In this document: positions 51,070-54,851 of the stretch, in pieces
How the letters are laid out: each line of letters opens with the position of its first letter
Position numbering within the stretch: position 1 is the stretch's first letter
DNA from: Escherichia phage CSP1C
Direction: 5' to 3' (one strand)
Sequence record: PQ202980
Length of the DNA: 55,550 nucleotides
Made by a program: the position numbers and the translations under genes
Notes under the pieces: model-generated
Told to the model about the DNA's origin: nothing
What the model saw: the letters and a program-made list of their open reading frames with translations, nothing else
Database searches by the model: none

Positions 51070-51462
51070 ATGCTATTAGTCGTCACCGGAGGGCGTAATT
51101 TTAAACATGTAGAGTATATTTATGCTCAACTTGATAAGTTGCATACGCAAAGAAGGATAACCACACTTCGCCACGGTGACGCTTCCGGTGTTGACCGGAT
51201 TTGCGCACATTGGGCAGAGCGCAACGGTATTAAGACAGAAGCGTTCCCTGCGCCGTGGGGCAATCTTTCCTTACCAAATACCAAGATACGGTATAACGCC
51301 AGAGGTGCTTATAATGCACAAGCGGGCGCTTACCGTAATCAATTAATGCTGGATACTGATCCTAGACCAGATCACGCTATTGTGTTTCCGGGCGGAGCTG
51401 GTACTATGGATATGTACAGACGGATTAAAGCATCCGGTATCCCTTACACATTAGCGGAGTAA
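51070..51462 (+). CDS. SLOG/DUF2493-like Rossmann-fold protein (predicted nucleotide-binding)
   Basis: Gly-rich motifs VVTGGRNF, HGDASGVDRI and FPGGAGTMDM in LOG/DprA-like order; SD GGAGAAG. Confidence 0.45.
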   Translation: MLLVVTGGRNFKHVEYIYAQLDKLHTQRRITTLRHGDASGVDRICAHWAERNGIKTEAFPAPWGNLSLPNTKIRYNARGAYNAQAGAYRNQLMLDTDPRPDHAIVFPGGAGTMDMYRRIKASGIPYTLAE

Positions 51463-51937: not shown

Positions 51938-52360
51938 ATGATTAAACATGTCAAACAGCCAACTTTAAATACATGCGTTTCTGCGTGTTTGGCAATGATC
52001 CTTAATAGACCTGTAGAAGAAGTAATTGCGGAATTTCATGATCGATATTACAACAACTGGGAAATAACAATTTCCGAATATTTAGTACAAAACAATGTTG
52101 ACCACATCTGTTCTGTGGGCGGTGGGCGTGAGACTATATACATGGGTGGTTTGTTTTTGTGCACTGTCCCAAGTCTCAATGTTCCTGGAGCACTGCATCA
52201 GGTTGTGATCGATACAACTAATCACAAGTTTATTGTACATGACCCAATTAAAGGTTGGGAAGGTAAAAAGTTCTACGTTGGCCCGGATCAAGATCCTGAA
52301 CAGCCAGGAGCATTTATCATTCATACTTGGGTTAAAGACGTTGAGATTGTGCTTAATTAA
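51938..52360 (+). CDS. papain-fold cysteine peptidase, C39-like
   Basis: N-terminal KQPTLNTCVSACLAMIL matches the C39 Q-x5-C..ACLAMI signature; downstream HQVVID and IVHDP give candidate His/Asp. Confidence 0.5.
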   Translation: MIKHVKQPTLNTCVSACLAMILNRPVEEVIAEFHDRYYNNWEITISEYLVQNNVDHICSVGGGRETIYMGGLFLCTVPSLNVPGALHQVVIDTTNHKFIVHDPIKGWEGKKFYVGPDQDPEQPGAFIIHTWVKDVEIVLN

Positions 52361-52422: not shown

Positions 52423-52608
52423 ATGACCAAACTATACGCCGGATTGTTTTTATTTGCGACGTTAATGTTCGCTGGGCTTTATACCTATACAGTAGTCGAA
52501 CAACCTTCCACGGTTATCCGAATCTTTGCAAGTACAGGGCTTTGTATCTGTCTTATTCTATTTGTTTTATGCATTGTTATTATCCAAGACCAAAGGAAAA
52601 TTAAATGA
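52423..52608 (+). CDS. small membrane protein (2 TM)
   Basis: 61 aa with two hydrophobic helices; stop overlaps next ATG (ATGA). Confidence 0.45.
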   Translation: MTKLYAGLFLFATLMFAGLYTYTVVEQPSTVIRIFASTGLCICLILFVLCIVIIQDQRKIK

Positions 52609-53069
52609 CCACAATTGCGTTTGATGGAAAAGTATTAGCTGCGGACCGTGGAGTTATGCGCGGGGAAGTTGTGACTGCATATAAGAAAGTTCACAGCGTA
52701 AATGGGCATCGTGGACGGTTTTTACTGGGTCTGTGCGGCCTTACAGCATTCACCGATCAAGTGCTGCGTTATTTTAATAGCGCTGAACCTGTTAAGTTCC
52801 CAGATATTAAAGTTTACAGCAAAGATGATGATTACGGGCAAACTTGCGGTCTTGCGGTTACTCCGGAAGGTACTTGCCATTTTATTTACAATGATGGTAC
52901 GTTGAGCGAGCCTATGCTGGACGGCTGGGGGTCGGATGGTAGCGGTTGTGTGTTTGCTGCGGGAGCTCTGGCTGCTGGTGCAAGCGCACGCGAAGCTATC
53001 GAGCTAGCAATCAAGCATACCACATGTGCATTTCTTGGCGTTGATACAATATCGTTTGAGGGTTTTTAA
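52605..53069 (+). CDS. Ntn-hydrolase, proteasome beta / HslV-like peptidase
   Basis: N-terminus MTTIAFDGKVLAADRG (Thr directly after Met) and later GSDGSG motif fit the proteasome/HslV fold. Confidence 0.5.
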   Translation: MTTIAFDGKVLAADRGVMRGEVVTAYKKVHSVNGHRGRFLLGLCGLTAFTDQVLRYFNSAEPVKFPDIKVYSKDDDYGQTCGLAVTPEGTCHFIYNDGTLSEPMLDGWGSDGSGCVFAAGALAAGASAREAIELAIKHTTCAFLGVDTISFEGF

Positions 53070-53330
53070 ATGACTACATTCAGTCACCTGATCCCACCTG
53101 CTTATCACAGCAAGGTAGTTGACCACGGGACGCATGTTGTAATTGGTGGCGAAATCTTTATCACAGATAACGAGGAAATCGCCATTGCAATTATTGACAG
53201 CACTCAGCATGACTTTATGGTTATCCTGCAACACGAACCCGATAACTTCACTTTTTACTCCAGCTACGGGGTCGATAAAGGTGGAAAAAGCCTTGTTAGC
53301 TGGTACATTAGCGAGTGGTTTGACGGGTAA
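53070..53330 (+). CDS. hypothetical protein
   Basis: 86 aa; ATG directly after upstream stop, SD GAGGG. Confidence 0.45.
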   Translation: MTTFSHLIPPAYHSKVVDHGTHVVIGGEIFITDNEEIAIAIIDSTQHDFMVILQHEPDNFTFYSSYGVDKGGKSLVSWYISEWFDG

Positions 53331-53412
53331 TCTCCTTAGATCAATTCTCCTTGCGCCGTATCAAGTTTCTCTGTTACCCTTGAGTGGTTCATGTCAAGCG
53401 GAGGAACTCGAT

Positions 53413-53850
53413 ATGGCACTTCAACCTCGTGGTATTCGTAATAACAATCCAGGCAATATTCGCTGGGGTGACAATTGGCAGGGCTTAGTTCCTGCTGATA
53501 AGCGGACCGATAAATCTTTTGCTCAATTCACGCAACCGATTTACGGCATCCGCGCTCTGGCGAAAGTCCTGACCAACTACACCAAACGTGAAGGCTTACC
53601 CAATGTGGGTAAGAAAAACATCGACACTGTACGTGAAATTATCTCTCGCTGGGCTCCGCCTAACGAAAACGATACGGAAGCGTATATTCGTTCTGTTGCC
53701 AAAGCAATTGGTGTTGAACCTAACGATCCAATCAATGTCTTCGACAAGACGATAATGTCAGGTTTGGTAAAAGCAATCATTCGTCATGAAAATGGCATGA
53801 TGCCTTACACGGACGACGTAATCAACCGCGCTATTGCAATGGTAATTTAA
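53413..53850 (+). CDS. putative endolysin / cell-wall hydrolase (family unassigned)
   Basis: 145 aa from ATG 53413 (SD GGAGGA) with N-terminal RNNNPGNIRWGDNWQG motif; assignment is positional (immediately upstream of holin and spanins). Confidence 0.4.
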   Translation: MALQPRGIRNNNPGNIRWGDNWQGLVPADKRTDKSFAQFTQPIYGIRALAKVLTNYTKREGLPNVGKKNIDTVREIISRWAPPNENDTEAYIRSVAKAIGVEPNDPINVFDKTIMSGLVKAIIRHENGMMPYTDDVINRAIAMVI

Positions 53851-53855
53851 CTGAT

Positions 53856-53877
53856 GGGGCGTCAGCCCCTTTTTATT
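53856..53877 (+). terminator. terminator/attenuator-like hairpin between endolysin-like gene and holin
   Basis: GGGGC gtca GCCCC followed by TTTTTATT. Confidence 0.5.
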
Positions 53878-53886
53878 GGAGGGAAC

Positions 53887-54231
53887 ATGTTCAACTCATC
53901 AAACGAACATTGGGCAGTTCTAGCGGGGTTTGCTCTGATTTCCCTCATTGGGGGAGCTCTCGGTTACGTCATGCGTACGATTGACGCTGGTAAGAAGGTA
54001 CGGATAAGCATTGCATGTCTTGAAGGTTTATCCGCCGCGTTCTTTGGCGTTATAATGTACGCGATCTACAGGGAGTTTAATATCAGCCTTTGGTTCGCTT
54101 TTGGCCTTGCTGGCCTATTCGCTTGGGCGGGTTCACGTGCTACGCTAAAAGCTCTAAAGTCGCTTCTAGCATCGCGGACAGGGATCAAACTCGACTCAGA
54201 GGACTGCAAACATGAAAATGATTCTAAATAA
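53887..54231 (+). CDS. holin (3 predicted TM helices)
   Basis: 114 aa from ATG 53887 with SD GGAGGG; three hydrophobic helices and charged C-terminus. Confidence 0.6.
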   Translation: MFNSSNEHWAVLAGFALISLIGGALGYVMRTIDAGKKVRISIACLEGLSAAFFGVIMYAIYREFNISLWFAFGLAGLFAWAGSRATLKALKSLLASRTGIKLDSEDCKHENDSK

Positions 54232-54688
54232 CTTCTTCAGTTTTATAAAAGCTAAACCGCGTCTATTTATCGAGTACCTGATGATTGGCGCGGTGGTGTT
54301 TCTATGCGGAGTGGCCGCTTACCTGTGGTCACAAAACGAGCTTAACAAATCAAATTTAAGCTTGGCTGAAGAACGTTTAACCGTTGTGGAGAAGGACAAT
54401 GCTAAGCTGAGCGAAGCTGTTGTATTTCTTGCTGCACAAAGGGAGAAAGATACGGACTCTTTCAAGAAACTAACTTCTGCAATTCAGGACGAACAACATA
54501 ACCACAAGTTGCTTCAGGACAAGTTGCAGACACTGGAGAAAAGCAATGCCGACGTCAAAGCTTATCTTAACGAGCGTATTCCTGATGATTTGCGCAGGTT
54601 GCTCGACGCAGACTCAACCTCCCCCAGCTCCACAGATAGTGAAGGTAAGACTACCCGCGCATCTACTGGTGGAATGTCGGGAAGTTGA
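54212..54688 (+). CDS. i-spanin (Rz-like)
   Basis: N-terminal TM helix then coiled-coil-rich periplasmic domain; overlaps the o-spanin gene. Confidence 0.6.
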   Translation: MKMILNNFFSFIKAKPRLFIEYLMIGAVVFLCGVAAYLWSQNELNKSNLSLAEERLTVVEKDNAKLSEAVVFLAAQREKDTDSFKKLTSAIQDEQHNHKLLQDKLQTLEKSNADVKAYLNERIPDDLRRLLDADSTSPSSTDSEGKTTRASTGGMSGS

Positions 54689-54851
54689 GAAAATTCCTTT
54701 GGTTTACACAAGAGATATTATCCGACGTTTACAGGATACAGAAACTGCTCTGACTGAATGTAAGCTAAGGGTTAAGGAAATCATACGCTATGAAGCTGAA
54801 AATGTTTCGCTTGATTTTGTAGGATCAAGCAATTATATTCAGCCTAAATAG
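54546..54851 (+). CDS. o-spanin (Rz1-like outer-membrane lipoprotein), partly embedded in the i-spanin gene
   Basis: Signal peptide ending LMICAGC followed by Pro-rich QTQPPPAPQ; starts in the +1 frame inside the i-spanin gene. Confidence 0.55.
   Translation: MPTSKLILTSVFLMICAGCSTQTQPPPAPQIVKVRLPAHLLVECREVEKIPLVYTRDIIRRLQDTETALTECKLRVKEIIRYEAENVSLDFVGSSNYIQPK

Follow-up and report, generated by a model that had tools for sequence, protein, structure and literature searches.

The PPH family was described by Fuchs et al. (2021) as a set of proteins of ~140 residues found in Caudovirales and prophages, whose hosts are mainly Proteobacteria, and it was placed in group I along with HslV, BPH, AAH, CPH, RPC, and DPH. 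According to the same work, PPH proteins are compact, without S12/H5 and without a propeptide, PPH and RPC being the only ones without helix H2; 324 nr90 sequences were counted, with neither a co-occurring AAA+ partner nor an informative gene context. Here, we analyze a gene of Escherichia phage CSP1C (sequence record PQ202980), located in a stretch of 55,550 nucleotides that will be called the window. Its coding sequence (52605..53069, plus strand, stop codon included) is defined by the translation of its open reading frame (ORF), a match to PHROG 1040, profile matches to HslV, BPH, and 20S beta subunits, a structural model, and fold matches, and it encodes a protein of 154 amino acids. This protein is almost certainly a member of the PPH family, an assignment based on its agreement with the published family description in size, residues, H2 loss, C-terminus, and phage host.

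The PPH region is 100% identical to that of Cronobacter phage CSP1 (KY982929.1) and 91 to 97% identical to that of ~33 Seurat/CAjan-like siphoviruses (Queuovirinae, Seuratvirus). The family features found in the protein are its 154 residues, the lack of a propeptide, the Thr1/Asp17/Lys33/Gly47 set, and the absence of both H2 and S12/H5; moreover, because it has no C-terminal extension, RPC is excluded. With respect to the rest of the family, the Seuratvirus protein is ~10 residues longer owing to small loop insertions (33-35, 38, 71-73, 78, and 93), and it departs from the PPH consensus at a few conserved noncatalytic positions (A110S, D139T, G143F, W6F, and W56Y); no defining trait of the family is affected. 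Longer members of the family carry heterogeneous C-terminal tails without a recognizable Pfam domain.

A comparison with the best-known relatives separates the protein from each of them. HslV (ClpQ) is ~20 residues longer (~175 amino acids, as against 154 in PPH, helix H2 accounting for most of the gap, so the shorter length remarked on in a first-pass annotation of the window is correct), has H2, is only ~20% identical to PPH, and works with an hslU partner gene that PPH does not have, although PPH and the Escherichia coli enzyme share the N-terminal residues MTTI. Also, the HslV equivalog models TIGR03692 and NF003964 give no match to PPH at E ≤ 0.01, and one PPH relative reaches 21.7 bits against equivalog cut-offs of 157.75 and 137. 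Judged from its sequence, then, the protein is not HslV proper. In the case of BPH, published work (PMC5777263) describes proteins of ~185 to 200 amino acids that retain H2, bear a long acidic pore loop, and form heptameric double rings, whereas PPH has 154 residues and no H2. Finally, the beta subunits of the 20S proteasome have propeptides that are removed autocatalytically, need alpha rings, and possess H2 and often H5, in contrast to PPH, which has neither propeptide nor H2.

The fold was approached through profile comparisons and structure prediction. PHROG 1040, named 'peptidase HslV family', matches residues 1 to 152 with E = 6.9e-32, this label being only a name given from remote homology. 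A search of 5.8 billion proteins yielded 24 homologues, down to ~30% identity, and the profile of these 24 sequences retrieves from the PDB HslV (E = 3.7e-8), BPH (2e-7), and archaeal and eukaryotic 20S beta subunits (3e-7 and weaker), HslV being the closest solved structure in both profile and fold matches. The AlphaFold2 model built on the same alignment has a pLDDT of 95.2 and a pTM of 0.89; it places H1 at residues 47 to 58, no helix between 59 and 79, a strand at 80 to 85, H3 at 115 to 123, H4 at 128 to 138, and the last core strand at 146 to 149. The chain stops five residues past this strand, leaving no S12/H5 and no C-terminal extension, and the profile alignment shows a deletion of ~14 residues at the place where HslV has helix H2. 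The protein carries the alpha-beta-beta-alpha fold with an N-terminal nucleophile that characterizes the proteasome-like clade of N-terminal nucleophile (Ntn) hydrolases. A broader profile search over 1.84 billion cluster representatives gave 11,920 proteins at E ≤ 1e-3, 8,448 at E ≤ 1e-10, and 220 at E ≤ 1e-30; the best matches listed are mostly 140 to 150 amino acids long and align from residue 1.

The residues expected for catalysis were followed over 168 PPH relatives with a median length of 148 amino acids, and their codons are all on the plus strand. Thr2 (52608..52610), the predicted N-terminal nucleophile that becomes Thr1 once Met1 is removed, is Thr in 160 sequences and Ser in the other 8; one of the two directly follows Met1 in 168/168, and 164 of the proteins begin with M-[TS] as called. 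Asp14 (52644..52646), which corresponds to Asp17 of HslV and the proteasome beta subunits in the alignment of the profile to the PDB, is conserved in 167 sequences. Lys28 (52686..52688), aligned to Lys33 of HslV, is present in all 168, as is Gly45 (52737..52739), the equivalent of the oxyanion-hole Gly47 in proteasome numbering and of the second Gly in the HslV 'GFAG' motif. The Gly112-Ser113-Gly114 stretch (52938..52946) matches the G-S-G of HslV ('IGSGG') and the Ser129 loop of the proteasome, with 168, 147, and 168 identical residues, respectively, and Asp147 is kept in 145 sequences. In the smaller alignment of 24 homologues, the invariant positions are M1, T2, A5, A12, D14, K28, G45, G112, and G114. 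These data, read together with the model, show that the proteasome-type active site is intact and lies on a confidently predicted HslV-like fold.

The position of the nucleophile depends on the start codon. The N-terminus of the translated ORF is MTTIAFDGKVLAADRG, and ATG 52605 is the earliest possible start past the preceding in-frame stop; since no in-frame start exists upstream, Thr2 lies directly behind the initiator Met, and the protein cannot have a propeptide. A Shine-Dalgarno-like AAGGA motif, read from the sequence, is located 7 nt 5' of this ATG (52593..52597, plus strand), and scans of the surrounding sequence for promoters and terminators gave signals at or below the shuffle expectation. 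A six-frame scan with hidden Markov models (HMMs) found PPH to be single copy in the window. The first-pass annotation had proposed a proteasome beta/HslV-like Ntn hydrolase for 52605-53069 on the basis of this Thr following Met1, and had pointed to a different fold or a poorly conserved Thr2 as what would speak against it; the profile matches, the HslV-like model, the catalytic set, and the Thr or Ser present in every relative all agree with the proposal. It had also drawn attention to a GSDGSG motif, which is indeed present at residues 109 to 114, but only its second half, G-S-G at 112 to 114, is conserved, residues 109 and 110 being an aromatic residue followed by Ala in most relatives.

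The relatives of PPH comprise 59 deposited phage records, 155 IMG/VR contigs, and 35 loci from proteobacterial genomes. Across 33 Seuratvirus genomes the protein is 96 to 100% identical, the DNA differing by ~8 to 9%, and a codon-level comparison gives a dN/dS of 0.024 to 0.035 at a dS of 0.41 to 0.48, that is, PPH is under strong purifying selection. The match to PHROG 1040, a protein identity above the DNA identity, and the low dN/dS indicate that PPH is a real gene and not a chance ORF. A truncated form of ~114 amino acids in Nonagvirus had been suspected from short tblastn matches, but the annotated genes are full-length, with 158 to 171 residues.

Existing records do not agree on what the gene encodes. 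The GenBank record of CSP1 labels it 'hypothetical protein', the CAjan orthologue (KP064094) is a 'putative protease', and 'peptidase HslV family' is the label of RefSeq/Pharokka-style records for orthologues of 97% identity in CAjan, Seurat, slur01, and others. Near-identical genomes are thus labeled inconsistently, 'protease', 'ATP-dependent protease', and 'proteasome subunit alpha type-2' being further variants. Both of these latter names mislead, as the gene is without an ATPase partner and its product resembles a beta subunit, carrying an active-site Thr.

The interpretation that we favor is that PPH is a Thr-protease activated by the removal of Met1 and working without an unfoldase of its own; for this statement as a whole, the identity of the protein included, we estimate a probability of about 0.8. 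Thr is a permitted second residue for Met removal, and E. coli HslV, which begins with MTTI, is matured in this way. By extension from HslV and the 20S proteasome, the methionine aminopeptidase of the host would remove Met1 and expose Thr as residue 1. Following the enzymology of the same proteins, this new N-terminal residue would act both as nucleophile, through its side-chain hydroxyl, and as general base, through its free alpha-amino group, with Lys28(33) and Asp14(17) assisting, Gly45(47) forming the oxyanion hole, and Ser113(129) and Asp147 in a supporting role. Activity in the proteasome/HslV family normally depends on oligomerization, and hydrolysis of the peptide bond by PPH probably needs the assembly of a homo-oligomer. 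The enzyme would act without a dedicated AAA+ partner, and because of this, its substrates would most likely be peptides, proteins that are unfolded or only loosely folded, or a single specific protein of the host or the phage. The gene itself would be transcribed as part of a rightward block continuing into the lysis cassette and the terminase genes.

The absence of a partner was evaluated both in the close relatives and in the family. Eighty IMG/VR loci were sorted by their PPH sequence, at 60% identity, into ~50 lineages, and all neighboring ORFs were clustered by BLAST. The annotation of the CAjan-type genome includes neither hslU nor another AAA+ unfoldase, none was seen among the neighbors in the ~50 lineages, and no AAA+ protein is among the families listed in a PHROG scan of 96 ORFs flanking PPH, the nearest ones on its strand. 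A phage lacking its own unfoldase could nevertheless borrow one, so that PPH would be a proteolytic core associated with an unfoldase of the host, most obviously HslU of E. coli or Cronobacter, and would redirect the ATP-dependent proteolysis of the cell. HslV being the closest solved structure, the shared MTTI N-terminus, and the fact that the enterobacterial hosts encode HslU are consistent with this possibility. However, H2, which in the proteasome family is part of the face that touches the regulator or the neighboring ring, is missing from PPH, the scores fall far under those of the HslV equivalog models, and PPH is spread over many taxa and contexts, none of which links it to HslU, in line with the lack of a co-occurring AAA+ partner in the survey of Fuchs et al. 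We consider the association with HslU unlikely.

Several observations weigh against an unfoldase-independent Thr-protease. The literature searched contained no published functional or biochemical study of PPH proteins or of HslV-like proteins of phages, and the Avs2 paper that mentions Seuratvirus deals with the terminase and not with the PPH gene. The Pfam Proteasome model (PF00227) matches PPH with 15.9 bits and E = 0.011, below its gathering threshold of 22.4, and a single-sequence phmmer comparison with the PDB returned only noise, so that the homology rests on profiles and structure prediction; among the 24 relatives, 16 match PF00227 at E ≤ 0.1, the best at 4.1e-7. The subthreshold score, along with the 'hypothetical protein' of the CSP1 record, would also be compatible with a remnant that has lost its catalysis or is of structural use only, or with a spurious ORF. 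Such an explanation is hardly credible for a protein whose catalytic residues are essentially invariant over the 168 sequences at the dN/dS given above, and for which the model is of high confidence and the PHROG match has E = 6.9e-32.

With regard to the Thr-protease itself, the loss of H2 takes away part of what is, in the well-studied relatives, the contact surface for HslU or the alpha ring, and therefore the assembly of PPH may differ from that of HslV. Moreover, since HslV and proteasome beta subunits show little activity in isolation, PPH may, by analogy, need an additional activator. Also, the same fold works in connectase as a ligase rather than as a protease, which raises the case of PPH being a sequence-specific peptide ligase or transpeptidase in vivo and not a hydrolase. 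Connectase is distinguished by a two-helix insertion between S3 and S4 and by having no H1/H2; these signature elements are absent in PPH, and for this reason a ligase role is highly improbable.

The neighborhood of the gene provides a different kind of evidence for the role of the predicted protease. A conserved partner was sought in the 80 IMG/VR loci, and no neighbor family was found in more than 10 of the ~50 lineages (~1/5). The recurrent neighbors are two portal families, TerL, a Mu-F-like head-morphogenesis protein, the major head protein, a scaffold, and the Ad1 adaptor, terminase and head genes being the commonest. The PHROG scan of the 96 flanking ORFs gives a similar picture, with TerL found 7 times, Ad1 3, Neck1 2 to 4, portal 2, endolysin 3, and several TerS families 2 each. 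For example, PPH lies between TerL and portal in loci L012 and L034, directly upstream of TerS/TerL in L033, L040, L046, L052, L053, and L070, and after the Ad1 adaptor in L011, L044, and L049, and it is found beside DnaB, NinB, or DNA polymerase in L008, L031, L047, L042, and L065. Two loci (L006:4068-8396 and L023:905-5415) contain a T7-like head module in the order portal (phrog_332), PPH, a 310-aa phrog_3742 protein that is possibly a scaffold, and major head protein. In other phages, the slot between portal and scaffold or major capsid protein is that of the prohead protease. In the genome of CAjan (L083, 1-50000), which is syntenic with the window, the head module consists of portal, scaffold, and major head protein, with no prohead protease annotated.

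From these arrangements, PPH could be seen as a head-morphogenesis protease that trims or removes scaffold or capsid proteins where a classical prohead protease is absent, given that head and packaging genes are its most recurrent neighbors and that CAjan-type head modules lack an annotated protease. Nonetheless, other lineages have the gene beside DnaB, NinB, or DNA polymerase, copies in Acetobacteraceae are located among housekeeping genes, and in the CSP1C window the lysis cassette separates PPH from the head genes. About half of the lineages have a gene for heads or packaging no more than a few kb away, which represents only a modest excess for phages of 40 to 60 kb. Furthermore, PPH has no C-terminal capsid-targeting extension, and no prohead protease of the Ntn type is known. 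A role of PPH in head morphogenesis is, in consequence of these points, quite unlikely.

The bacterial copies deserve a separate description. About 20 of the 35 bacterial loci come from Roseomonas, Falsiroseomonas, and other Acetobacteraceae, where a PPH of ~139 amino acids (L091-L122; for example, L101:3788-4726 and L109:6447-9548) is placed among housekeeping genes with no obvious prophage. The neighbors include a pyrB-like carbamoyltransferase, an amidohydrolase, and TctC, and no conserved operon was found around these Acetobacteraceae genes, any given neighbor being common to at most 5 to 6 loci. Fuchs et al. (2021) reported nonphage contexts of PPH in Pseudoalteromonas and Mesorhizobium, and the Acetobacteraceae look like a further context of this kind.

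In CSP1C, the gene is part of a tightly packed rightward block with the order SLOG, 156-aa, 140-aa, 61-aa, PPH, 86-aa, endolysin, holin, spanin, and small terminase. The SLOG/YspA-like protein of 130 amino acids (51070-51462, plus strand) matches PF10686 YAcAr/YspA with 63.6 bits and PHROG 289 'GTP-binding domain', and could be a nucleotide-binding accessory protein. It is followed by a 156-aa protein of unknown function and a 140-aa protein (51938-52360). Immediately upstream of PPH, an ORF of 61 residues (52423..52608, plus strand; phrog_22841, unknown function) encodes a very hydrophobic, membrane-like product, and its TGA overlaps the ATG of PPH (ATGA); both are likely cotranscribed and translationally coupled. 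In Hafnia phage yong3, an upstream ORF of equal size has no similarity to it. On the downstream side, an 86-aa ORF (53070..53330, plus strand; phrog_23528, unknown function) begins immediately past the TAA of PPH, and it is kept beside the gene in Seuratvirus and yong3, and weakly in Klebsiella phage vB_Kpn2-P2. This layout of overlapping and abutting stops and starts is typical for a tightly packed, cotranslated operon.

The lysis cassette directly downstream (53413-54851, plus strand) includes an endolysin (phrog_873), a LydA-like holin (PF16083), an Rz-like i-spanin (54212-54688, plus strand), and, nested in another frame, an o-spanin-like ORF with a Cys-containing hydrophobic N-terminus (54546-54851, plus strand); a listed TTG-start ORF at 53143-53850 is probably an overextended endolysin gene. 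PPH keeps its place just 5' of the lysis cassette and terminase in Nonagvirus JenK1, vB_Kpn2-P2, yong3, and Providencia phage PSTCR4, even though the PPH identity in these phages is only 30 to 39%. The leftward arm of CAjan contains, as is typical of Queuovirinae, genes for 7-deazaguanine (queuosine-like) DNA modification, namely a queuine tRNA-ribosyltransferase-like gene, FolE, QueD, QueC, and QueE.

Two other genes tend to accompany PPH in this group of phages. A C39-like cysteine peptidase is found with it in Seuratvirus, Nonagvirus, the Klebsiella phage, PSTCR4, and the IMG/VR locus L077, and in PSTCR4 it lies directly upstream of PPH with an overlapping stop. The SLOG protein is also close to PPH in PSTCR4, where it has a Cys-rich N-terminal extension, and in L077 and L039. 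However, local HMMs detect C39-like or SLOG genes beside PPH in only 2 to 3 of the ~50 IMG/VR lineages, and no PPH lies within 8 kb of the more distant C39-like homologues. An obligate partnership with either protein was rejected, and the behavior of the distant homologues suggests that the linkage of C39-like and PPH genes may be synteny inherited in one group of ~60-kb siphoviruses, not a functional pairing. The defense models of PADLOC-DB gave no match for PPH, its four neighbors, or three distant relatives, and NCBIfam gave none for PPH or its neighbors.

Since the family was published in 2021 and sister phages have the gene labeled as an HslV-family peptidase, finding PPH in CSP1C only identifies a known and annotated family once more. 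The extent of the family is nevertheless far larger in current metagenome data, with 8,448 representatives at 50% identity (E ≤ 1e-10) versus the 324 nr90 sequences counted before, and hence any function of PPH would apply to very many phages. The PPH-bearing Seuratvirus and BASEL (Bas19-25-type) phages infect E. coli K-12 and constitute a convenient experimental system. Beyond the proteolytic activity proposed here, a more specific and still doubtful idea sees PPH as a phage 'mini-proteasome' that does without an unfoldase and has a defined job at one stage of infection, such as the removal of scaffold where the head module has no classical prohead protease, the destruction of a host factor or defense protein, or participation in a conserved accessory cassette of Queuovirinae-like phages. 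In this last option, PPH could be combined with the stand-alone C39-like cysteine peptidase and the SLOG (YspA-like) nucleotide-binding protein. If a 'mini-proteasome' of this kind does operate during infection, a viral proteasome homologue would, for the first time, have a function assigned to it.
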